Assembly (NCBI GenBank): GCA_017654855.1
Contig: CM030332.1
Coordinates: 5,332,001-5,396,000 of the forward strand
Direction: 5' to 3'
From: Podospora anserina
Taxonomy: Eukaryota
Length of the DNA: 64,000 nucleotides
The translations under genes were made by a program, and so were the position numbers. The notes beneath the pieces are model-generated. The model did not search any database, was not told the origin of the DNA, and saw only the letters and a list, made by a program, of their open reading frames with translations. Below, piece after piece: positions 38,513 to 55,345 of this stretch (position 1 is the stretch's first letter; the number at the start of each line of letters is the position of its first letter).

Positions 38513-39416
38513 GGTCACAGAGTACAAATTTCACCTTGGACACGTCTTGTATCTAGTCCAGCAACGTAGCCAGCCGTCATGCCAGCCCATCCTCCAGGGG
38601 GGCGATTTGTTTATAAAGTATTTTTGTCATTGCTGAAATCTTCCGTAGCTCGCTAGCAACGGACATCTGTCGTTCCCAAGTTGTCGAATCAGGCATGGTT
38701 AGTCGACAATGTAGGTAGCAACCGGCTAATAGCTGCACTCGCTCTCGTAGAATCTAAGTACTCGCATTGGAGCGCTTCTGTACTTTTCAACATGCGCGCC
38801 AGTAGGATAAATAGGATCGTACAAAACACACACGACTAACAGGGTCCCACACATAAAACCAGCAAGCGCTCATTCTCACAAGCACATGAAATCAACCTCT
38901 TCTCTTCACCCGACCTGTCAGCGGCGTTCTTGACAACTGAAACATCTTACATGACCAGGTAGATCAAGAATATACGGCACTTCCGTGTGCATCAACTTTC
39001 CACGACATCCTTTAGGCTACTTGCTTATGCCGTGGCTCTTCCCTGATCATCAGGAGTTCAATCAATAACCCCCCTCATCACGGATTCCAGTTCTCCACCC
39101 TGCACCCTGCTCAAATCGATAAACCCCCCTCGTGAATTCCACTCCTCTTTTCTGCCCAAAAGAAGGTCATGTTCAGGCATGTTTGTTGTTGACACTTTCA
39201 ACATCCCCTGAAGTTACTCCGTAAACATCCCGGAAGATAACATTGTACTTAAATTCTTGACTGTGGAATCGCAACCGGTTGACCAACCAGACAAGCCACA
39301 ACCACCACAACACACCCCTTTAAGCCTCTTATAACCATCCAAAAAAAGATGGAGGAAAACGTTTGGAGATAGAATCAGAGTATTTATTATGTATGATTGT
39401 CAAAAAAGACTAAAAA

Positions 39417-39474
39417 ACATACAACACCAGGTATTCCCCAGTGGTCACCCACCTGAGTACTGGTCTGGCGATCA
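39417..39474 (-). pseudogene. 3' half (58 nt) of an interrupted 5S rRNA gene, with oligo-T terminator
   Basis: Reverse complement TGATCGCCAGACCAGTACTCAGGTGGGTGACCACTGGGGAATACCTGGTGTTGTATGT followed by TTTTT. Confidence 0.93.
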
Positions 39475-40639
39475 TGTAGCATGACCGCGAGGATGGGCGA
39501 CTCCAAAAAGGGTATATTGTTTACTTCAAAATGTGGAAGAAAGCGTGCCGCTAAACGGTTCGTGGACGGACAGGCTTGGCCCGTCTCAACCGTTACAGAT
39601 TAGAGAATGCAAACACGCCCACACCGCGGTGTTAAACTGGGTGGAATGTGTTCCAGATGTGCAGATCGCGCCAACAGCTCTCGGCCGGTTTATGATTGGA
39701 TGCAGCTGGCATCAGTCATATCTTTGGCGTCAGTCCCCACCTCCGGCGTAATCACTCCAGTAAGTTTGCTGATTCCGAAGAGATGGTGTTGGTAATAAAC
39801 TGTTGATTGTAGTAACTATGGAAAAGAGCACTGAGAAATGCTGCAAGTTCCAAACAAACCAGCCCAGGTTGGCCCAGGTTTCCTGTGGAGCCAGTTGTGG
39901 CTACCCACACAACAGATGGAAATTTGGATATCTGGTCCGCCTTGAGCAGCGAGCTTTTCACAGTGGATCGCTTCTCCAGATTGATTCTCTGCGCTCCTGT
40001 CATCTTTGGATCTCTCTGGATTACTTTTTACCGGGGAAACAGCTGAACGTGCGTCTTCAGCTTAGTTGCATGTCCTGATATGCGCAACTCGATAGACATG
40101 CCAGGGGGTTAACGCCATCTCGTCGATTTCTTAATAATATTCTTTTGAAACTCAAAGATATTGGTCTATAACCAAGGCTTGAGGTGTTTGTTCCACTTCT
40201 CGGTGCAATAGGCGGGTGGGATAACCTTGTCTTCGTAGCCGACGTAAAGCCCAGATGCCCCCCGGAATGGCCAAACCATATCTGGTCCTGGCAGTTGCAC
40301 TCTGATGCGGTATTCTAATAACGTGGAAGAGGCGCAAGAATTAGTTATTGAGTTCGACCGCAGCGTGTTATTCCTTCTTGAACTAGGTAAAAGGTTAGAA
40401 AGGTTAGGCGGGTAAACCGTGACCTTCGAATTGATAGACTGTCTAAGATAGTTTTATTCGTTATTTCAAATACTGTAACCCTTAGCGTAGAAGGGCTGGC
40501 GAGCATACGTGAAGTTAAGGGTAGTGGATATAATGGTTCTTGTTAGGATTCCTTATAGTTAAGTGGCTGGGGGTCTTATAGTCCTGGCCAAGTTATATTT
40601 GAATCGTAGCTAGGCTACTCGTTAAGAAAATAAAACAGT

Positions 40640-40915
40640 GATAACGCCCTTGTTCAGTCAAAGGAGTACGGAGCTTTGTCGGTTTTGCGAACCACTACCA
40701 AGCATTTATACGCAAGTTCTCGGAGAGAGCTCTTCCACTGACGGCTTTGACTAAAAAAGGGGTTTCTTTCAGTTGAATTCCTCAGTGCGAAAAAGCGTTC
40801 AAGACACTTAAGACACTTCTGATCAGCGCGCCAGTACTCGTCCAGTGGGACCCAGAAAGGAGGATGGCGGTGGACACAGATTCATCGGGCTATGCCGTGG
40901 GTGGGCTTCTGTTAT
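40640..40915 (+). mobile_element. Ty3/Gypsy pol fragment (RT connection / RNase H), degenerate
   Basis: [14 protein letters not shown]...[10 protein letters not shown]...CEKAFKTLK..LISAPVL..WDPER...VDTDSSGYAVGG, with stop and frameshift. Confidence 0.88.
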
Positions 40916-42299
40916 GGCAGCTCACACTAGGCAGTTCTACTCGACAGCTGAGCAGACTCAGTGAAGGGACAAGATAGAGGGTTCATAAAAAAACACAGTT
41001 CCCTTCACATGCAAAATTCCTTTCGCATGCCTATTTGTGAACACCTCGCTCAAGCATACAAATCAGTCATTTTGTTTCTTGTCAACACTTTGCATACTTA
41101 TCTTAATCTCATCCCTCTTTTAAAATTATCCCACTCCGGCTCCCTATTCGTAGCATCCATCACCAAAAGCTCCTCATCACCCATTTGCAGAACCATAATA
41201 AAGCACCCCGCAACAGTCAGTCGACCCTACGCGCCAGAGAGAATTATGCTAGCCGCTGCCGAGTCTCCACGGGATGCCCCTGCCCCTACTATCACCCGAG
41301 GCATCGACATCGAACAGGCCCTCACAAACTTGTGTAAATGGGCTGGGGGTGTGAAATCATTCCATGACTTCGAGCCAGAATATTCACCTATATTCGGATG
41401 AAACCACAGAAAAAGAGCTTATTAACGCACGAGCTGGCTCTTTGGGAGAAGCATGCCAAGGGTAAAGGAGGAGAAGAGGACGAAGGGTTGGTTATGTAGG
41501 TGGCCTTGTTACTGTTCTTGAGGTGCCAAGTCTTTCTTTGCATGATTGGAAGGCTCAATGTGGTTGGTTCTATCCAGTGCCATCCCTGGCAGACCCAGAC
41601 AACAGGCGCTTTTGGGGCATCATGAGAGGCACACCGGAGATTTTCTGGAAGTCTCTCAGGGAGATTGCGGTTATGCTGCACTCTGGTAACTAGGATGCTT
41701 GGTAAGTTTAAGGGTTTAAAGTCTGTGATATGAAGGCTAGGAAGTTTGGATTCTCGCCCTCATGCTGGAACGTCGAGTTACAGAGGAAGAAACAAGGGAA
41801 ATCTTTCAACAACATCGGCCAGACCCAGGTATGTTCAATAATCCGTAATCGTTGAGTGGCTGCTAACAACGGCGAATTAACCGGGGAACACAACAGGGGA
41901 TTTTACATCAGCGAGGATGTCACCCATTGATGGGACAGCCGACCGCTTCCTGGACTGTATGCGCTCTACGACCGCAAGCAAACAGCAGGTGATGAGGGCA
42001 GGCGCCCCAAAAAGGACGGATGGTGTTGTGGTGAAAGGATGTGCTACCGACCTGCGTTGGTGTTCTTTCTGGTCGAGGGAATGTTTTGCCGTTTTCAGAC
42101 TTATCCTGGTCTGGACGGTCACGTGATAAGGCACACGGTTACAAGCAGAGCAACCGGATGGGTAAAAGGCAACCAATGGGGAAGGGATCATGAGTTCTGT
42201 CAATCATCCAGCAATCTGGAGATAGGATCATTGTGGCTTGGAAATGATCCAGAAAAACTATAGTCTATATTTACGGAGGAACTAGCTAGCTTGTAGATA

Positions 42300-42463
42300 G
42301 TTCTGCAGTATGCAATTCACATTGTGAGTTCTCAAGGACCAAGCACTTACGAGAGACAATTGGTGATCTTTGTTGTGTACCTTTTGGCTACACCGAACCG
42401 TTATTCAGAAGCAGCCTTCAACCCAGTATCCCTTTCAGAGGTTCCGATCAGGGGTTCGTCACA
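42300..42463 (+). repeat. 3' part of an LTR, related to the copy at 43520-43753
   Basis: About 90 bp shared: CACCGAACC.TTA.TCAGAAG.AGCCTTCAA....GTATCCCTTTCAGAGGTTC.GATCAGGGGTTCGTCACA; 5' boundary not resolved. Confidence 0.7.
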
Positions 42464-42679
42464 ACTGTAACGGGCTGAGCCCTGAACCCTCGGCCCTGAT
42501 GAAGCTATTCCTAGAACACACACACACAGACCACTACTCCAGAACCCTCTATCACCACGCACTGGCCAACGCGCTCAGCCATATCAGAGGCTCATGTTGT
42601 CAAAACTTCTCTTTCTCTTTTTCTTTTCTTGTCCAAGTTCAGTGTACTCGTAGAGTGGCCTAGCTAGTTGCAATATACT

Positions 42680-43200
42680 ACCTTGATACCATTACAACAA
42701 CCTTGGGGTTCCCGGTTTATCGTATCTCGGGGGGCTACTAGATCCAGGTCCCAGTGTGTTTCCAGTTGTAGAAGAGCTTCCGAATCGGGTTTGTATCGGT
42801 CGTATAAATCCCACAGTGGGTGGTGGTGTAAGCTGAAGTCCCCTGCAAGGACTACCGGGTAGGTTGGTCTGGGTTGTTCGAGCAGACTCCTCGGGAGGGT
42901 CTTGTTGGTAGGAGGATTGTATATCGACCGGATTTCCAGACCCCTTTCTTCACGCCTTCTTCACTTCTACCTTCGCTCCTCCCTTTCCTCCTCCTTTCAC
43001 CTCTTCCTTCACCTCTTCCTTCACCTCTTCTTTCACCTCTTCTTTCACCTCTTCTTTCACCTCTTTCTCCACCCCTCCTTCAATACTTAGAAACCATACC
43101 TTGCACCAGTCTCCCGAAACCTTGTAGTCCCATTGACTGGCATCCAGTCTCTTGGTAATGAATATAGCTGCCCTGCCCTCTGGTTGATATAACAGCACCA
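42680..43200 (-). mobile_element. LINE (Tad-like) APE endonuclease fragment interrupted by a 12-bp minisatellite
   Basis: RAAIFITKRL...W...DWCKVW and GLEIRSIYNPP...VVLAGDFSLHHHPLWD (APE GDFNxHHPxW motif). Confidence 0.75.
42996..43067. repeat. Minisatellite (TTCACCTCTTCY) x6
   Basis: Six tandem 12-bp units, the last imperfect. Confidence 0.9.
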
Positions 43201-43519
43201 ACAATATCGGAATCTGGAAATGGACAATTTCCATTTCCGTTCTTGGACCTGAGCACTCGCCGCTTTAACCTGAGCAGAAGTGGAGATCTCCTGAGAGTGG
43301 ATGAGCAAAGCCCTGAGCAGGGCGAGCAATGGCTGAATCCACCTGAGACCAGGCTACACTAGAGGTAGACCATGCCAGAGCTGTTTCTGGAGCGTACACC
43401 TATTCCACGGTAATTGTTGTTAGCGCTGCAGGGGGCCTTTTGGTGGAAGTTGCTAGAAAATGGAGGGTGGCTAGGGAAAACATGCTAGCGCCCTATACAA
43501 AACACGGCTAATCATGTTT

Positions 43520-43753
43520 TGTCACGACCATGACCAACAGAAAGCATGACCCCCAACAAAAAGCACGTGACCGGTGGGAGACAGCCAATCAGGGGTGGAC
43601 CGACAGACCGAGGGGAACGACCTGTATTCATGGTATCTTGTGTTTACATTGAGTCAATCTTGCTGTGCACTGTTTAGCAGCACCGAACCATTACTCAGAA
43701 GAAGCCTTCAATTGTGTATCCCTTTCAGAGGTTCTGATCAGGGGTTCGTCACA
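43520..43753 (+). repeat. Solo LTR, ~234 bp
   Basis: TGTCACGA...TCGTCACA termini (TG...CA); 3' end shared with the copy ending at 42463. Confidence 0.7.
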
Positions 43754-44291
43754 ATAGGCCTATAATACTGGCCAGGCCAATATCTTACGATGACCCGCAC
43801 TTTGGTTGGAGGGGTGCCGTTTCGAGATGGAATTTGTATAGGCGTGAGTCGATTTTTCGCCGAACGCACCAAAATCGGGGTCAGTCAGATCGGACTCTGG
43901 CTCATCTGTTCGCTCTGGTGTGCGAGACGCTGCGCATCGGTCGGTAGGTATATGATAGAGGTCGAGTACGAACCCTATTACAGAGTCTATTCAGGTGGAT
44001 TACAATTGGCTAGCAATACAATATACGAGGTTACCCACTATACTATCTGTCTACAGTACCTATAAGGTACTTCAGTCCAGTACCACAGCTGTGAGCTTTG
44101 GGTATCGTGCATGAGCCTTCCGTTGCACTAATTACTGTGTGTGTTTACTGTTTACAGGGCCTTAGGCCTGTAAATGGCCATACCTATTTCAATAATAAAG
44201 ACCTTCGAAAACGGCCTCTTTTGTCTTGAAGTCCATCATCAGCTAGATCAACAGTCATCAAGACAAGAGATCAACCCAGCTAGTCGACACC

Positions 44292-45125
44292 ACGGCTCCC
44301 AAGTCTCTCGCCATCACGGCGGTGTACCTTTTCCTCTCTCTTGCTTCCGCAACCCCCGTCACCCTCGAAGCAAGAGATCTCCTGAACCCCATTGGACTAA
44401 CTGCCACGGCCGAGCAGGAGAAATGGTGCCCGGCTCTCGGCTATGACACCTACAGCTGCTACAACACCGTGGCCATCTCCCCGACCGGCCAGCTCAACAG
44501 CGGCCAGGACCCTGGCAAGAGCCAGAACGACATCCTCAGCTTCTGCCACAAAAAGTACTGCCTCACCAAGCACAACATCTACGTCCAGTCCAAGTGCAAC
44601 AACGGCTGGTGCGCCCATATGTACGACTACTACTTCGAGTTCGACTTCGGCATCGGCGGCCGGGAGCACATCGCCGTCTGGATTCAGAACGGACAGCTCA
44701 AGTTCGTCTCGGCTTCCGAGCACGGCAAGTGGAACATCCGCTTCCCTGGGAAGAACTCCAAGATCCGTTTTGAGGGAAGCACTCACGCCAAGATTGTCTA
44801 CCACAAAGATGGTGCTGGTACCCATGCCTTCCGCTATGCGAACAACGGTGATGAGCCTCCTGAGAACCACTGGCAGAGCTGGCGTTGGCGCATTGGTGCC
44901 GGTCTGCTGAAGTTGGACTCGATCGCCGGCAACCTGCGCACTACGCTGTCTCAAAAGGATTGGGGTAAGGCTGAGGTGGCTGTTAGGGACAAGGGCGGCA
45001 AGGCCTGGAACTTTGGCTGGTACTTGGACCGCTCCAGATACCACTGCGTTACCGAGCTCGAGTGCCCCGGTAACCTGGCTACGGCGTTTGATTCTTGGGC
45101 TTGGGTGGAAGGACAGTGGGTGTGA
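44292..45125 (+). pseudogene. Necrosis- and ethylene-inducing peptide 1-like (NLP/NPP1) gene, probably decaying
   Basis: Signal peptide; P.L.YDTYSCYN..AI...G.LNSG, CNNGWCA.MYDYYFE.D, EHIAVW, IVYHKDGAGTHAFR.A, PPENH; ACG in place of ATG; GHRHDWE heptapeptide missing. Confidence 0.85.
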
Positions 45126-45828
45126 TGGAACTACATAGACCAGGTGTTGGAATACAGGGGTTGGAAAGGCGGGATACATGTAGGAACTAGACGTACACAG
45201 TTGTCTTTATCAGCTGGGCCTTTTCTCAGGTAGCCTTCAAATTTGATTGCTTGTGTACTCTAGCCAGGTAACCAATTGGACTGACTTCAACGCATCTATC
45301 CCCTCATCCTCGTGTATTGGTTTCAAAGCGAGGGTAGAGGAAGATTGCCCGCTAACAGGAAGCTGAATGCACATAATTCTCTAGAGATAGGTAGATAGTT
45401 TCCAGTTGACGTAAACACCTATTCTCCAATGGAGCCCCAGGCCCTCCTTGCAACTTCCATACTGTGTAATATGCCCCAGGCACCTCAAATAGAATTGCTG
45501 CCCCTCAAAGCCGCTGGTGGCCCCTGCTTGCAGCTGCACGCCTAGCCAACTGCATCATGCGGATTGTTGTTGCACGCATTCCCTTGGTCTGTGAACTGAC
45601 TCCAGGCAAGGAAATTTGGGGCTGGTTGCGATGTCCGCGCCACTCTTATCTCGGATTTCCCAAATGGCATGCCTAGATTTGGGAGGTACGGAGATTGACT
45701 TTGGGTGGGTGGGATGATGACAGTGGATGAGACTCGGCTGTAGGTATAAAGCTAGCAAGTTCCATCCCATGGAGAGTCCAGAGCTTAGGTGGGTATGAGT
45801 TCAGACTACAGCCAAGAACCAACCTAAA

Positions 45829-46485
45829 ATGAAGACAGCCATTCTTCTCGCCGTCCTGTTTGTCGGGGCCAGCTCCCTTCCTGTCGCTCCATCTCTCGAG
45901 GCCAAGGTATATCTGTCCCTTTCTGTGAGTCACACAGCAGTGTTGATCTGTGCATAGGAGATACAAAACCGCCATGTTCACCCTGCCGGGGCTTGGGAGT
46001 TTCCCACAGTTGATGCCACGAGCACCCGTGCGCAGTGGGTGTCTTCATACGGAAACAAACCCCCAAAGAAGGCCCAGGAGAATGAGCCGACTGTGGATGG
46101 TACGAGCACTCGTGGACAGTGGGTGTCCTCCCACGGCAACAATCCCCCCAAAAAATTTCAAGAGGGCCCCACCGTGGATGCAACAAGCACTCGGGCACAG
46201 TGTGTGTCCTCCTATGGTAACAAACCCCCGAAGAAGGGAGCGTCGTTTTCAGACCATTGGGTAAGTTGCTCGTTGCCTTAGAAGCTACCTCCATACCTAT
46301 AGTCAGTGTGGTTCCAGGATACACGCTAACACCTTCCTCACCAGCTTCCTGTCGGTCCCGGTTACTTGGACCTTGATGCACTCGAGTCTGGCTACCATGC
46401 CCACTTGATGATCATGCACGACTCGACTTCTTGGCTTCAGTCCGGGATGACGGCCATCAAGCGTTTCATGCGCAGGTTCGCTTAA
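45829..46485 (+). CDS. Secreted repeat-peptide precursor (KEP/dikaritin-precursor-like); exons 45829-45906, 45958-46260, 46345-46485
   Basis: Signal peptide MKTAILLAVLFVGASSLP; three repeats PTVD[AG]TSTR[AG]Q[WC]VSS[YH]GN[KN]PPKK; canonical introns keep the frame. Confidence 0.75.
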
Positions 46486-47089
46486 GGCTATGGGACTGCC
46501 AGCCAGTGTTTGTTGGAGGAAGCCACTCGACGGGGTGCTGTACTGCCGGTGCACCGCCTGCTATTCATTGAGGCAATCTGAGTCATAAATGTAGAAGATT
46601 GAAGTGGGATGGTTCTTTCTTTTCCTTCCTTGACCTTTTCGTCTTAACGGTTGATTTGGCCTCGAAGGCCACTGGATGGTTTACAAGGACCAAGCACAAG
46701 GCATCTGGGCCTGAAAAAACACTCACTTTGCTCCAATGATAATATACCTGCCTCATTTAGGTAGCTACTTAGGTACCTACTATCTCACACAACGAGTAAC
46801 ACACCAATACACTGATCTCTCAGCAACTTTTAATGCGGCTGGGCCATTTGACCCCCAAAATTTGGAGTCCAAGCCTACCGCCTTTCAGCCATTCAAAAAA
46901 CAAACCAAGTAGGTGGCGGTTGAGGAATCGAGATTTTGTTGGTTACCTATCATTTGATGGCAAATACAGACACATGCAGTGCTGATAAACAACTTGGACC
47001 CCGCATCAACCAACACTTGGCGAATTTGCTGCAGGTGAATATTCACAATCCCCAAAACACAGCTAAATATTCACTGTGAACCTCTCAAA

Positions 47090-48544
47090 ATGCCCTCTCA
47101 CAATCACGCCAACTACCAAGCTCGGCTTGATTTCGTGCGCAATCTCTTGAATGACCGTTTTTCTCGGGGTAAGATACTTGACGAACCGCAGCGGATTTGA
47201 TGATTAGTCCCGCCAGCTAACTCGACCTAACAAAACAAACTTGACATCTCCCCGGTTCAGTATGACCCCGAGTGCATTTTTGAGTACAACAACTTTGTTT
47301 ACCACGTCTCACTCGCGTCGCCGCTCATCGCGGACCACTCAGACAACAACTGGAATGGCACCTTTCAGCCAGGTACTGTGGCCATTTCCAAGGGCACAAA
47401 AGACCTCGTGGTGCGACTTGGTAATCGTGATATTGAGGGTGTTCACCAAGCGACCCGTATTGAGAACGGAGTAGCAATAACCAACCTGGTCTTGGCGGCT
47501 CTCAGCCATGCCTTCCAGCCATCCATTGTTCCTCGGATTTATGGGTGGGGAAGCGCTGCAGCTGAAGCTGCTCAGGGCTGGATACTGCAGGAGTTCATGC
47601 CGGGGATTGGCGTGGACCAGCCGTTTAGTCAGCAGGATCTTGAGCAGAAGAAGGCACTGTTGGCTCAGATGGCAAAAATCGTCAAAGCCCTGCAGGCCTA
47701 TAGCCTGCCGTCTACGATCACTGGCTACGGAGGTCTGACGTTCAACGAAGGTGGTGAGATCGTCAGTGCAGCTATGCCCACGGTTGGCGCTGGGCCTTGG
47801 CCGTCTTACCAAGCGTCATTTCAATACCGCCTGGACCTGGCCCTCAAAAAGGCTGATTCAAATCCATACATCAAGGGATGGCGAGCCAATGGGCTTCGGG
47901 AGCGCATTGATGCTTTCGTCCAGCGGGGCGTTCCGGCTCAGTTCGAGTCGTTGAGCGATAAGGATGACAAGGTGGTGGTGCACTGTGATTTTAGTAAGAT
48001 TCCAAATCCCAGCACTACAGCTGTGTCAGGCTGCGTTTTGTCTCTGCCGATAGCTGACCCTCCCGATCCAGGCCCAACCAACATCTTATTTGACGAAGCC
48101 TCGGGGCGTATAACCGCCCTCATTGATTATGACTTTTCCTGGATCTCTCACCCCTCTTACGAGTTTCTGCGCTCATTCGATGGTCTCGGGGGCCAATTTT
48201 GAGGCTGGTCCAGCGACGAAGAGAGCCAGGAAGCAGCGTTGAGAGATGCCAAACTCCACGGGTTTCCTGTCTCCCTACCATCCACCACCGAGTCAGACTC
48301 GGGAGTTGATTGGGTTGTTGCGAAGGCCTGGGAGGAGGCATTGGAGGCTGAAGGAGTCAAACGACCAAGGACTATGGAAGGTGTCGATAGGGTGGCTGAC
48401 GTTGACGCAATCCTATGTGCTATTTTGCCATGGCGCGTGACCAACGCCGACATCTTGGCTCGCCAGACTGAGGAGGTTATCATTGAATGCAGAAACAATA
48501 ATGAGAAGCATCTGGACGAGTTGTTGACCCGCCTGGGATTCTGA
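47090..48544 (+). pseudogene. APH/choline-kinase-like phosphotransferase with a premature stop
   Basis: VPRIYGW, WILQEFMPG, HCDFSPTNILFD...ITALIDYDF; TGA at 48200 followed by in-frame continuation to 48544; first intron lacks a clear AG acceptor. Confidence 0.8.
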
Positions 48545-49177
48545 TCTCTGGTACAGTAAGGCAGATAGTCGGTTGGACGTGGTTTAAATGGTCCATGGGA
48601 TCGGACTTCGATGCAGTGGACGCAGAAGGAGGAAAATTGATATTTTATGTGCTCCGCGTTCTGGAAAGGTTTTTTTTATGGATTAATTCCAATAATGTAT
48701 CTTTGGGCTTACTAAAATGAACAGAGATAGACACATGCTACAAAATATACATAGGTAGGCAAGTACAGTGAGGTTGTATCCTCATTTTCCCTTGTGATTT
48801 CGGTATGAAGTTGTGATGGATAGGCACTTTAGCAACCACCGGCTAAATTGTCAACCTTGGAACACACAATTGTGGGTCGAGCACATCTCACTTATGTCAT
48901 GTTGATGTTCTGTTGATGTTATGTTGCTGGAGCGACGAGTATCTTGACTGGAATTGCGGTGAATAAGTCTTTTGCTAGGGGACAGATGGTGATTGTGGAT
49001 GGTGTTGTGAAGGTCCATGATTGTGACCGCGGAGCCACAAACCACTGCACTATGAAGCCACGTTGCATAAAAGCATCAAATCAATCAAACTGCCCAAGCT
49101 CGATCGATCCAGTCGTTATATACGTTCACGCACTGCATGTTGGCCATACCTGTCAGCCAGTGCCGTGATACTGATGA

Positions 49178-49420
49178 CTAGAAGAGGCACTTGTACCCGA
49201 CAATGGCTGCGCCAAGCATCATCAATTCATAGCCCCTGAAGTCAACACGCCCAGCACTGCTCCTGGTTGTCGTGGCAACGGCTGAAGTCCCGCTACTCGA
49301 GGTCGCCCTGTGTGAGGTGGGAGCGGTAGTGATGGAAGAGTTACCGTGAGCTGAGATTGGCATGGTGCCGAGGTCAGGCTCAGTCGCGGTTGCAGTCAAG
49401 GTGACAGAATCATCGTGAGC
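49178..49420 (-). pseudogene. Orphan terminal exon of a Ser/Thr-rich GPI-like protein
   Basis: S/T-rich stretch ending SSAGRV..hydrophobic tail; CTACAG acceptor at ~49421; no upstream exons seen (pogo relic lies there). Confidence 0.45.
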
Positions 49421-49599
49421 TGTAGCTAATCAGCATGGTGTTGAGGCCGGGCTCTGTGTATGTCGACAATATATCCTTCTCCCAGCATGCCCAGTGGTGC
49501 TCACCACTGTGATCTCCACACCGGTTTAATATCAAAAAATTTCGACCTTTCGTTTTATTTTCTTCACAATTCAACCAAAACTACCGCTTTTTTACTATT

Positions 49600-51269
49600 T
49601 CAAAATAGAATCTCTAATTCAAGCGGCCCTTCAATACCTAGAAGAAAACCCGGGAGCTCCAGTGGCACGCGTCGCCCGGGAACATGGCCTTGAACGCAGT
49701 CAGCTTCAATCTCGCCTCGAGGGCCATGGGCCTACCAAAGGGCGTGAGCCACCACACAAGCGTCTGAGTGACCCAGAAGAAGTTGTGATTTGCCGGCATA
49801 TTGATCGCCTTGATGCTCTCAATATGGCAGTACGCCCTGAGTTTATCACAGAGGCAGCAAACCGGATCCTCCTAGCCAGGTGCTCGCGCCAAGAACTCGC
49901 TGATCCCCCTCAGGTTGGACCAAACTGGGCACCCCGCTTCATTCGCCGCCACGGGTATCACAAGCAGCGCCAGAAAACCACGGCGAGCGAGCGGAAGCAC
50001 TCAGAGGATCCCCAGGCCGTTGAAAACTACTTCAACAAGCTCGCTGCCGTCGTCAAAGAGCATGGGTTACAGCCTGAGGACATATGGAATATGGACGAGA
50101 CGGGGTTTCGAAATCGGGGTGGGCAAGAGCCAGCTTATCGTGATCAAGCGCAAGAGAGCTCACTACTTTGCTATTCCTGAGAATAGGGAATCGGCCATGG
50201 CGCTCGAAGCTATCTCGGCCGTTGGGCGCTTTTGCCCACCCTTCTTGGTCTTGGCTGGCCAACTTCACATGACCCAGTGGCACAAGCAGGAGGAAGTGGA
50301 GCCAGAGACTGTGATATCGACCTCCCTCAGTTACTATTCGAATGAGGAGCTTTCTTTGGAATGGCTGAAGCACTTTGACTAGCATTCGAAGAAATCTCAA
50401 CTAGGCGCTTATCGGTTACTTATCATCAATGGGCATGGATCTCATCACACTATCCAATTTATTAAGTACTGTCAAGAAAACAACACCATTTCTTTCGGCT
50501 TACCACTAAATCTTACGCATGTTCTTCAACCTCTTTTGATGCTGTGGTCTTTCAGCCGCTCAAACATTACCATGGCAAGGCCCTAGATGTGTTGGTTCAT
50601 AATGGCCTTACAAACATCACCAAGATCGAATTCTTGGGTATGATCCAGGGTGTGCGCTCACAGGCCTCCAAAAGGCCCATTCTATCGGCTTTCACCAGAA
50701 CTGTCATCTTTCCATTCGATACCTCTGTTGTACTGGTTGAACTGCGGCAGAGGGTTCGGCCAGAGACACCCCTCTCCCACACCCAAACCTCAAGCCCTCC
50801 CCGTCAGCACACCTGTTACCCTCAAGCAGATGAACAAAGTGGCTGATAAGCTGTCGAATTCGCTACCTGACGATCTTTCTGATGAACTTGTTGATGGCAT
50901 GGGGAGGTTCATCAGGGGGTTCCTCACCACGGCTACCGAGCTGGTCCAGACGAAGAGGGGCCTGAGCGCCACATAACTGGCCCAGGCTGTTGCCAGAGCT
51001 CGCTGGGCATCGAAGGGAGGGGGGGCTTAAAATCAGGGGGGGTGCTTACTGTGGCCGATGGGCGGCAAATGGTTCGAAAGAGGGAGGACGAGGCCCTCAT
51101 CAAGGCGAAGAAGCTGGTGGAAGCGGCCGGGCAAAAGGCTCTCAATTTACGTAAGAGGGCTTGGAAAGAAGCGACCAAAGAAGCTCGCAGTTGGCGTACT
51201 ACTGGGAAGCTTAAACCGGCCGAAATTTCTGATGGATCTGGTGTTTTGAAGCGGTTACGGCGTTTTTAG
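49600..51269 (+). mobile_element. Pogo/Fot1-type (Tc1-mariner) transposase pseudogene
   Basis: HTH VAREHGL..S.L..R, CENP-B-like LS..EE..I..I..L, VG.NW..RF..RH, IWNMDETGF, RLLII[N]GHGSH, TH.LQP, VFQPLK.Y; several frameshifts and stops. Confidence 0.92.
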
Positions 51270-51281
51270 TTCAAGAGGTTC

Positions 51282-51843
51282 GATTGATTGATTGATTGAT
51301 TGATTTATTAACGCCCGGGCGGCTAAGCCGAAAGGGCAACTATTACCGATTGAAGCATACACTCCCCAAGATATGCCCTGATCTCCCTAAAGCCCATGCA
51401 AAGTCCGATCTAGCTTATACACTCTTTTTTCCCCTTTCTCTACGTATTCTCGTGGGTTAATAGGATTGTTAGTAGGTTGGCTTGAAGTCGGTTCTCCAAG
51501 TATTCAACGTCCCATCTTCGGCGGCTGAAGCGGTACCTGCTATCTATAGCACGAGGTAATAGGTGTAGGGTCGGTGGAGAGTGGTGGTTGGTCGGTTAGG
51601 TATTTCAGTTGGCCTGCGGTTGGTTCGCGTCGAGTCGGCCCGTGGACATTGCGAACCGAATCGTTGCCCGAACGGTCTTGACGTTCGGAGTCCAGTCTTC
51701 TTTATCCGACGGCGACTTCCCTCCTAGATAGAAGGAAATATTGCCTCTGTGAGTGGTTGTGCGCTGGAGCATCTCTGCTCGGTACGCCGTCCATTTCTTG
51801 CACCGGAAGAGGAAGAGTTCCACTGTCTCTCTCGCTTGTCCGA
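51282..51843 (-). mobile_element. 5'-truncated LINE (Tad-like): ORF2 C-terminus, 3' UTR and (AATC)n tail
   Basis: GQARETVELFLFRC..W..YR.....RGNISFYLGG.......W.PN..TVRATIRFA..TGRL; reverse-complement tail AATAAATCAATCAATC... Confidence 0.85.
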
Positions 51844-51876
51844 GGGTGGCTAGAAAATAACATTGCGGTCAATTAC

Positions 51877-51936
51877 TTGCTTAACTAGGGGAGAGCGGAC
51901 GGGATCCCGTATATTCAACTGCCTATGATCGTATGT
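51877..51936 (-). pseudogene. 5' half (60 nt) of the interrupted 5S rRNA gene
   Basis: Reverse complement ACATACGATCATAGGCAGTTGAATATACGGGATCCCGTCCGCTCTCCCCTAGTTAAGCAA. Confidence 0.93.
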
Positions 51937-52286: not shown

Positions 52287-54192
52287 TCAAGCAGAAAACA
52301 AGGCCTTAAGCACCGTCTTCAACCTCCTCCCCCCAGGAACAGTCGCCTTCCCCCTCTCCAACTCCACACCCCCCTCCAACTCCCTCAGCACCCTCCCAAT
52401 CTCCATATACGTCTCCACCGCCCCAATCATCGGCCCCCTCGCCTCCTTGGGAATCCCATTCATTTTCGGCCTCGCCTCATCATACAACTTGAACGCCTCG
52501 CTCAGTAATCTCCTCCTCAGGTTCTCCACATGTTTCCCCCTTGGATGGGCGACGACGTCTTCTGGGGTGAGACCTTCCTCCTTGAGCCAGGTAGTGGGAA
52601 GGTAGACCCTTCCCATCTCGGCATCTACAACAATGTCCCGTGCAATGTTGACATACTGCAGCGCCACGCCCATTGTTCGTGAAACCGACATGAGCATCTT
52701 CTTGCGCTCATCAGGCATCTCTGGCTCGCAGTGCTCGATGATGAGAGCAACGCAGAGTTCGCCTACTGTTCCCGCCACGCATTGGCCGTAGTAGTTGAGC
52801 TTGTCCTCGTCGACAATGGGGTACTTGGCCGACTCGGAGGAGTCATGAAAAGAAAATTGGGAGTCGAGCTCGAAGCCCTCGATGAGTTGGTAGAGAGGCT
52901 GAGAGGGGAGAATGGTAGCTGGGAGATACTTGAGTGCTGACTTTGCCTCGGGTGGGAAAGCCTCGTCGATATAGTCGTTGATCCGGGCTTTGTTGGCTTT
53001 TACGTCGGACTTGTAGTGGAGGTCAAGGAACTTGTAGAGCTTGGTGGTCCAGGACTTGACTTCGGTGCGGGAGGTGGAGTCGTCGACGAGATCATCGGCG
53101 AGGCGGCAGAAGGAGTACCTGGAGAGCTGTTAGTGACATGCTGAGCAAGATGGGAAGGTGGGGTGGACTTACAGAAGAATCAAATCGATGCGAAGACGGC
53201 CGGTAAAAAGCGAGTTGGCCAGGTAGAAGCTTCTGCTCTTTGCCTTCAGCCGAGTCACAGCGTCGGACAGGCCCGCAATCCTTTCGAGATCGTATTGCTT
53301 GGTGTTTGAGAACCGGCTCTGGACCAACATCAAAGGCGTGGGAGACCGAGGCACCTTGGGGAACAGGTGAGGGAAGGCAAAGATGATGGCCAAGTACTGG
53401 TCAAAAACTGCCATGCCGAACACAATGAGGATATTGGTCGCGAGGAAGAAGGTAGCCTCCTCGATGTCAAGGACACCAAACAGACACCATCCCAGCTTCG
53501 TGCCGGACTCAATGGCCCAAGTTCCACGTCCCAAAGCCAGCTCGTCCACGAGCCACAAGTAGACTGTCGGAATGATGATCGGAACCACAGTGGAGGTCAA
53601 GGGCAGGGTTAGAATAAATCTGCCCGCAACAGTAAAGGTCAACAAGGCGAATGGGAAGGCCCATGCCAGAATAAGTCCCAGATAGGTGCCAGGACCGCCA
53701 GTTCTAATCTGGTGAACACCATAGAGCGTCAATGCGACGAGAATGCCCTGTCCGATAACCTTGCCTCTGGCGATCCGTTGCGGTGGGTTTCTCTGGGTGC
53801 TGAGGTACAGAGGGTGGAACAATGGCTTGCTGAGGAGGATGTAGAAGAGCGAGGTGATGTATGTTTGAATCACGAAGAAGAACAGCTCTTCAATTGGAAT
53901 TCCATAGAGACGAGGCCCAATGATGGCGTCTGGCGGGTAGGTCCAAATGTTGCTTCTGATCAAGTATGAGTCCCATGGTAGCGTCGCGAGGAAGGAGACA
54001 ACTATTAGACTCCCAATCTGGAGGAAGTGTATTCGGTGGAATATTGGGTAGGCGATAACTGTAAGCAACGCAGCAAGGGGTATCGTGTATTTTAAATGTC
54101 TAGACACCAAAGTTAGTATATTTACATGATCGTGTCTCGGGCGGCTCAAAGGAAGAGAGCAGAGCTTACACAAGGGCATAATCGTAAGCCAT
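52287..54192 (-). CDS. al-2: Bifunctional lycopene cyclase/phytoene synthase; two introns
   Basis: [63 protein letters not shown]...GRVYLP. Confidence 0.95.
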
Positions 54193-55345
54193 GATGAAAA
54201 GCGTGTTTGAGTGGTCGTGTAATGAGGTTATTCCGGGGTTCTGCAAGCCTTGGCTCGTCCCAAGGGCTCAAACGGTGAAAGAGTAAAGCACGTGTCGATC
54301 CCAACCAAAAAAATGAGGCGTTTACAAGTCAATCCAGCGCGTCATGACAGAAAGTGAGGATTCGTTTGCGGTGAAAGAGAGAGCAAAGCTACACATCCAG
54401 GGGAAAGAAAGGCGGGACCCCAAGCAAAATGAACCCTTTCGTCATCGATCAAAGAAGGGGCCAGCCCTTCGGGACCCGTGGCAGTGTCCGCCCTTTTTCT
54501 TGGAGGATCCATATCTAAGCACTCAAACCCACTGCAACATGTCGAGATAGAAGCGCCAAACAAATCGATTTCGATGGGGGTTGACCCTGGCCTGGCTCTC
54601 ACATCTATCGGACGAACTGCCGCGTAATCCTGATGTCAGTGTAGCTGGGTCCCAATCCGGATGACCCGCATATATTCAGCCCTGATGAGCAAGAGCCCGG
54701 TGACCTGCCAGATGCGGTTCTGGATCGGACGGAGTGCCCTGGAAAGTCAAAAGCGCCGCCGGCAGTAACACTGCCGGAAACAAAAGTACGCCAGAGCGCC
54801 GCTGGCACGGGACCGCATGGGACGGCACTGACAAGAGCGGCTTCGATCTGCGACATGGCGATAGAGCGACAGGACGAACTAGGCCCAAGACAGCAAGGTG
54901 ATCGTGGGTTTGGTGAGTAATTGCTGCTAAATCAAGGGCCAAGACTGGCAGTGACTCCCTCCGATCCAGTTGTCTGGGGAATTCGGAAACAAATGGAAAA
55001 ATGACATGTCCTCATCGCCCGCATCAGGCTGTGATCGTTGATCTTTGAAAACGGTTGTGGATGTCAAAGATCGCACAAACCCCTGCCCCGATCGACACCG
55101 CTGTCACGGCAAAACAAGCAGACTCCGCTTCCAAGCGCTTGGCATCCCACTTTTATCATCAGCCAATCAGAACCAAGGCGCAAATCCTCTTGTCTTGTCT
55201 TGCTCGGCCTCGGCCCGGACGGAACGTGGAAACCGGCACGGCACCGCAATTCAACCAAGCACCGACCCTTAATCAAGCCAACCTTTTTCCTCCGTGTCAC
55301 CTCCGCCGATCGCCGAGATCACAACCGCAACCACACATCCCGAAA

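Follow-up and report, generated by a model that had tools for sequence, protein, structure and literature searches.

The split 5S rRNA gene and the insertion within it

The window, that is, the whole 64,000-nucleotide stretch of Podospora anserina DNA analysed here (G000:C1:5332001-5396000), contains a minus-strand 5S rRNA gene in two pieces, a 5' piece at 51866-51936 and a 3' piece at 39416-39468. Between them lies an insertion of about 12.4 kb (39469/39475-51865). Motif searches found the split gene, which Rfam did not detect at gathering scores. The genome searched for related sequences was a 36-Mb assembly of nine contigs. A gene piece from it has its relatives among Podospora proteins (81-87%). 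The features of the locus are as follows.

39416..39468, minus strand: 3' piece (nt 68-120) of the interrupted 5S rRNA gene, closest to the intact subtype L008-L011 and followed by a T-run at 39412-39417
39468..39488, no strand: imperfect palindrome across the left junction, with 9-nt arms (8/9 matched) and a 3-nt centre, including the left "arm" of an earlier note on this DNA
39469..39474, minus strand: the 5S nt 62-67 core as it stands on the cargo side (TGATCG), one base off the host subtype TGACCG
39475..39700, plus strand: conserved cargo-side terminus beginning TGTA; four sister ends are 78-85% like it, over about 125 nt in every one of them and about 230 nt in the closest
39785..39914, no strand: nested dispersed repeat, found in seven other places at 79-91%
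within 42260..43760, no strand: nested high-copy repeats (42260-42463 and 43623-43753)
42667-42960, minus strand: endonuclease/reverse-transcriptase-type fragment between these repeats (Exo_endo_phos_2, E 8.5e-5, below the curated cut-off)
44247..45125, plus strand: cargo, a frame with an NPP1 (necrosis-inducing protein, NLP) domain (PF05630, E 1.2e-31)
47231..48202, plus strand: cargo, an APH/kinase-like phosphotransferase frame (domain scan and relatives)
49530..51269, plus strand: broken relic of a Tc5/pogo-type DDE transposase in several frames (HTH_Tnp_Tc5, E 3.4e-9), its extent inferred from the frames
51303..51840, minus strand: nested repeat, 80-90% like four other places in repeat comparison, lying where the sisters have their captain-side end
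51841..51865, minus strand: remnant of the captain-side terminus, beginning CAATGTTAT like sisters L053 and L125
51866..51872, minus strand: host 5S nt 61-67 (T-TGACCG), the right "arm" of the earlier note and the captain-side copy of the direct repeat
51873..51876, minus strand: four extra nucleotides within the dead half of the split gene, GCAA standing there a second time as GTAA after a C-to-T change, from the junction alignment
51877..51936, minus strand: 5' piece (nt 1-60) of the interrupted 5S rRNA gene, from comparison with intact 5S copies

The NPP1 and APH domain frames are the cargo genes inside these boundaries. The NPP1 frame has no ATG in the open frame upstream of its domain, and the APH frame encodes 323 aa as against about 430 aa in most relatives, its best named relatives being from Cladorrhinum (75%) and Apiosordaria (85%). 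No DUF3435 captain or captain remnant was found in 39475-51865, and DUF3723, FRE and NLR domains were absent from the 11 scanned frames of the insert. The nested repeat at 51303-51840, which reaches within 25 nt of the captain-side end, has no Pfam hit; its frame is similar to the closing part of a non-LTR reverse transcriptase of fungal type. Dinucleotide ratios indicate little RIP-type skew across the insert. Three imperfect 84-nt direct repeats are present within it at 46000-46260. Adjoining the insertion, a phytoene synthase gene (SQS_PSY) occupies 52287-54227 on the minus strand, with an upstream exon that we take to be cyclase-like; on the opposite side a GDSL-family gene lies near 38 kb. 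Elsewhere the window holds a tRNA gene (1525-1598) and, at 3594-3713, an intact 5S gene belonging to a different subtype.

Corrected boundaries of the insertion

The placement of the two ends depends on which bases belong to the host gene, and for this the 66 ungapped intact 5S copies of the Podospora genome served as a reference set for subtype comparison. Both halves of the split gene best fit a subtype bearing AATTGACCGC, with 3 mismatches in 108 nt. The earlier note had placed the ends at 39476 and 51876 and described asymmetric terminal inverted repeats there, and every letter and coordinate it quoted is as given: GTAGCA-TGACCGC at 39476-39488, GTAAT-TGACCGC on the minus strand at 51876-51865 and TTAC-N7-A at 51873-51884. 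The interpretation is another matter. While the left arm is element sequence, the right arm is host 5S and not an element end, because AATTGACCGC stands at nt 59-68 in 7 of the 66 intact copies and because the sister elements start only after nt 67, host 5S being retained through that nucleotide in three sister insertions. After nt 67, L053 and L125 continue with CAATGTTAT, as the window does. From this shared start and the junction alignment, the right end of the element is 51865 rather than 51876, the latter lying 11 nt too far into the host gene.

Once the boundary is corrected, no 5S base is missing, and the reported loss or replacement of one base at the junction is a by-product of its misplacement. 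The four extra nucleotides at 51873-51876, present in the window and absent from the other four of five aligned captain-side junctions, probably arose by duplication in the dead 5S half; they supply both the "GTA" of the supposed right arm and the TTAC of the supposed target motif. The letters of TTAC(N7)A are indeed present, but the motif depends on these four nucleotides and is found at 1 of 10 family junctions (on one side, in host-derived sequence) and in none of the 66 intact 5S copies. Across the window it occurs 70 times, where chance predicts 69.

For two 20-mers drawn at random from the window, the probability of an inverted match of 7 nt is 0.013, so that the match seems more than chance at first sight. 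The earlier note had proposed that TGACCGC be conserved across homologous termini and had itself equated the contrary outcome with a chance match. Within this genome the motif is exact in one of five left ends, the corresponding position showing 0, 1, 2, 3 and 4 mismatches, and the inverted repeat is thereby refuted on the note's own terms. At the corrected ends no significant inverted repeat was found (longest matches 4, 3 and 6 nt; P 0.83, 1.0 and 0.08), and a profile of the cargo ends scored on the captain ends reached P < 0.05 in one of five. L053 has a weak GGATGG inverted match (P 0.04-0.08); terminal inverted repeats, an optional feature of Starships, were otherwise not found.

Sister insertions and the captain relic

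Searching the genome by motif for the two 5S halves gave 84 and 81 matches. Together with end searches, this revealed one lineage present at least seven times, as whole or half insertions, at a single 5S position in the Podospora genome, and further end searches gave no additional copies. Three are complete: the window copy (12.4 kb), L052 (9.5 kb) and L053 (5.9 kb). The remainder are lone cargo-side ends (L054 and L067) and lone captain-side ends (L125 and the decayed L066), while four orphan 5S halves that bear no family terminus (L061, L063, L064 and L065) are excluded from these counts. All copies lie at or beside 5S nt 62-67. The same termini thus recur at independent sites, five ends of the cargo side and five of the captain side sharing one 5S position; all five cargo-side ends read TACA followed by the nt 62-67 hexamer, and the four clean captain-side ends break after nt 67. 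The sisters have termini in common and no common cargo. In the window copy only about 25 nt of the captain-side terminus are left, with 9 nt identical.

The link to Starships comes from L052. An 81-aa relic of a captain N-terminus is located there, about 600-830 nt into the element as counted from the 5'-half junction and directed away from that junction; the relic matches the captain of a second element on C7 (described below) at a tblastn E of 6e-5. In phmmer the relic finds a relative, P0005 (E 1.2e-5), which bears DUF3435 (E 1.8e-16), finds the relic again at E 2.4e-8 and is 37% identical to the C7 captain over 320 aa. A full HMMER search with the relic returned 11 hits, and one of the nine scanned carries DUF3435; a word-indexed search returned the relic itself and two Podospora Myb fusions only, and the same kind of search with the C7 captain exon returned nothing. 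At L052:8782-9603 (minus strand) the relic adjoins a Myb-domain frame, and the annotations of two sister Podospora species treat the pair as a single Myb protein; the insertion is therefore older than those species or shared with them. A DUF3435 search of the whole genome gave at least four matches, representing two genes; this is a lower bound, as the search missed the L052 relic and a putative captain on C1 for which there is no more than a weak hit.

Since the window copy has no captain of its own, its Starship membership rests on the termini that it shares with L052 and the other sisters. The conclusion of the earlier note that a tyrosine recombinase, rather than DDE or LTR transposition, integrated the element still holds, but the evidence offered for it, the inverted repeat and the target motif, fails; it is supported instead by the fixed insertion point in 5S, the termini common to the sisters and the captain relic in one of them.

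Several further observations concern individual copies. L125 (G000:C3:3901200) and L067 (G000:C5:2366037) both fit the rare 5S subtype L103/L021 and could be the two ends of one insertion parted by rearrangement. Behind the lone cargo-side end of L054 is a tandem array with a 99-nt period (L054:1042-2177), and 6.6 kb beyond it comes an intact 5S gene. The decayed 5S copy L061 (G000:C5:2462695-2462779) has a 21-nt internal repeat just after nt 68, perhaps left by repair or by a simple duplication. A broken DUF3435 gene with many stops lies at L068-L069 (G000:C5:428288-429720), with no 5S gene or family terminus nearby. In a metagenome pattern scan no outside homologue of the termini was found; the sole match to the left junction, L070, has no 5S gene around it and is due to chance.

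Presence across sequencing runs

Run holders were ranked by share, and the 20 holders among the 24 runs listed all hold at least 0.95 of the words; 10 of them may be the source itself. The unique parts of the insertion were covered in four of four runs, and no empty allele was seen in them. Reads joining 39474 to 51877 with one A between them were considered as an empty allele and rejected, their depth being several times that of a single copy, which fits intact paralogous 5S genes. In run X11 a loose end (two contigs, agreement 0.88) places an L052-type end behind a TGAGGG subtype at a site not found in G000, a faint indication of a further insertion at the same break point.

A second 5S-inserted lineage

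The same 5S position has been hit in both directions, by two lineages in opposite orientation. The second lineage has other termini and likewise breaks the 5S gene after nt 67. Its main representative is an element of 58.6 kb on C7 (G000:C7:1720800-1779400, L055-L060) that splits a 5S gene, contains a DUF3435 gene and is flanked by an AGAG repeat. In size, repeat and captain position it agrees with Pans_Starship2, with which it is presumably identical. A lone end on C3 (L062:350-720; G000:C3:3014878) is 94% like the captain end of the C7 element. The three bases next to this lone end follow its own host subtype (TCG), the C7 bases being GAG; this is a hint that a short target duplication proper, or else repair of a heteroduplex, took place in the C7/C3 lineage.

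The direct repeat and the origin of the cargo-side hexamer

The sequence of 5S nt 62-68 stands at both junctions of the window insertion, as GCGATCA at 39468-39474 and GCGGTCA at 51865-51871 (6/7 identical), so that the element is flanked by the imperfect hexamer pair TGACCG/TGATCG. The statement that no duplication is visible overlooked this repeat, although it would be correct in the mechanistic sense, with no true target-site duplication having taken place. At the captain side the hexamer is that of the host subtype in all four clean junctions (TGACCG, TGACCG, TAATCG and TGATCG; the decayed junction of L066 is excluded). At the cargo side the hexamers of the five ends are TGATCG (three times), TGACCG and TAGCCG, and in all three complete copies the hexamer is unlike the host's, by one base only in two of them. 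Mismatches number 4 of 18 in the cargo-side hexamers, a count that excludes L054 and L067, which have no 5' half, against 9 of 324 in the remaining halves (Fisher P 0.003), and P is 0.014 when L067 is added at zero mismatch; the test draws on three elements that are related to one another, and choosing the best among 66 copies skews its background downward.

These departures fit a core carried by the element rather than a duplicated target. The hexamer at 39469-39474 was thus probably brought in by the element, and the direct repeat would reflect a likeness between terminus and target. A more specific proposal is that the lineage recombines across a mismatch-tolerant 6-bp overlap (5S nt 62-67), with one junction receiving the hexamer of the host and the other that of the previous site, as in Tn916, and with the palindrome at the cargo end as the captain binding site. 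We regard this as a tentative and rather improbable proposal, and the divergence of the cargo terminus (78-85%) could yield the same spread of hexamers. If it were true, every relic would record the site that the element last left, and the lineage could use the most variable stretch of 5S and escape host change at its target.

Among the 66 intact copies, the genome-wide 5S genes (L001-L030 and L080-L116) hold 16 different hexamers at nt 62-67. Variants there are paired with corresponding changes on the opposite strand of the helix, and both Starship lineages break exactly at this place. The commonest hexamer, TGAGGG (12/66), forms GGGC at nt 65-68 with the following C, while the occupied sites bear other hexamers.

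Alternative explanations

The insertion is very probably a derelict, captainless element of the Starship type, integrated by a captain after nt 67 of a dispersed 5S gene, and four other readings have to be weighed against it. The reading with ends at 39476 and 51876, asymmetric terminal inverted repeats and no direct repeat has in its favour that the letters are there and that the 7-nt match is itself uncommon by chance. It is nevertheless highly improbable, given that its right arm is found in intact host 5S genes and is missing at the four other captain-side junctions, and that its left arm is seldom exact and the corrected ends lack a significant inverted repeat. Nor is it at all likely that rearrangement or decay joined two unrelated 5S fragments around a stretch of transposon debris. 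In favour of this reading, nested repeats make up a patchwork within the insert, which has no cargo in common with its sisters, yet a single 5S subtype accounts for both halves, which meet in register, and both termini recur at the same 5S position elsewhere.

As a rival account of the direct repeat, an ordinary target-site duplication of 6-7 nt may have been altered afterwards on the cargo side, by mutation or by conversion from other 5S genes; we consider it unlikely. The window copy differs by a single C-to-T change in a gene whose halves have other changes too (3 in 108 nt), the L067 hexamer may equal that of its host, and in the second lineage the captain-end bases follow the host in both copies, on C7 and on C3, with AGAG on both sides at C7. 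Against this, the departures in the three complete copies are all on the cargo side, one by two changes (TAATCG vs TGACCG), while the other side departs in none of four (P 0.003-0.014), and experimental Starship excision leaves no footprint in the reported work (PMC10104507). A crossover within nt 56-61 of the 5S gene was likewise considered and dropped, the 5'-side hexamer following the host in four of four junctions. The palindrome at 39468-39488 suggests a local symmetry in which the cargo terminus holds an inverted target core bound by the captain. Its arms match at 8 of 9 positions in the window (P 0.0015 over 13 spacers) and at 7 of 9 in the majority of five copies (P 0.017), but it was noticed post hoc and is rated a lead only, the sisters matching at 6, 5, 4 and 3 of 9 positions and the junctions folding no better than shuffles in four of four (z -1.2 to +1.0). 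We consider this symmetry rather unlikely, and it can stand beside the preferred explanation.

Under the preferred explanation, a captain tyrosine recombinase would have integrated the element into a dispersed 5S rRNA gene, behind nt 67, the element bringing its own hexamer like 5S nt 62-67 at the cargo end. The captain would have stood on the minus strand at the 51865 end, directed away from that end, and would later have been lost along with all but about 25 nt of the captain-side end, while the dead 5S half gained its 4-nt duplication. The element is now unable to move by itself.

Comparison with known systems

The window element is a known kind of relic, an ordinary derelict of a described class, and probably derives from an Arwing-like lineage. 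Starship insertion sites are in 5S in 23% of cases, with at least five target positions, and Arwing (family 9) inserts in either direction at CCCG/GGGC (PMC11162782). The same source lists Pans_Starship2 of P. anserina as 60 kb long, with the repeat TCTC/ctct and a fam09 captain (PMC11162782). The likeness to the Arwing family consists of insertion inside 5S rDNA, a short direct repeat and either orientation at one site. In contrast to Arwing and Pans_Starship2, the window copy has 12.4 kb and no captain, and the likeness to the C7 captain runs indirectly through the 81-aa relic of a sister. The lineage also differs from the C7 element in its termini, its opposite orientation and a repeat of 6-7 nt rather than 4. 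With a range of about 20-700 kb for Starships (PMC12153272), the window copy and its sisters (9.5 and 5.9 kb) are below the usual size, as expected for decayed copies. As regards the features by which Starships are recognised, the window lacks a DUF3435 first gene at the 5' end and has a direct repeat reflecting the target as well as cargo.

Derelicts have been described as captainless Starship regions in which cargo and debris outlast the captain (PMC9156397). The window relic resembles them in retaining cargo and debris after loss of the captain and differs in being recognised by its termini and target site, not by Starship-typical cargo. Voyager of Macrophomina inserts in 5S at a distance of 20 bp from its 5' start, and the same report raised the idea of variant 5S genes escaping insertion (PMC9156397). 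Osiris of Aspergillus fumigatus also inserts in 5S, and 18 of 20 elements have TIRs (PMC12153272). Both split dispersed 5S genes and have direct repeats of at least 6 nt, like the window element (PMC9156397, PMC12153272); unlike it, they belong to other families and are active and large, and Voyager is not at nt 67. The main text of a Pyricularia preprint (bioRxiv 10.64898/2026.01.28.702382) has nothing on 5S or repeats, and a literature search with most subscription papers outside its scope found none on a captainless Podospora lineage or on Starship hexamers carried from a donor site.

Hephaestus of Paecilomyces variotii excises without a footprint and has the target TTAC(N7)A, and its authors hypothesised that the termini carry target-like sequence (PMC10104507). 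It resembles the window element as a tyrosine-recombinase element with a direct repeat arising from terminus-target likeness (PMC10104507). However, Hephaestus targets its motif at many sites, whereas the TTAC of the window stands on one side of one copy, in host sequence. The asymmetric inverted repeats and the Hephaestus motif as first reported are a misreading of little import. The Tn916 coupling sequence is a 6-bp donor-derived end that need not match the new target (PMC11838328; coupling sequences are also treated in PMC12229494). Tn916 differs from the window element in being a bacterial conjugative element with AT-rich targets, and a fixed terminal mimic and a carried sequence are indistinguishable here. 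The modest value of the element is mechanistic. With many 5S subtypes in one genome, the host side and the element side of a Starship direct repeat can be told apart, and the source of each side is the question that the experimental work on Hephaestus left as a hypothesis (PMC10104507).
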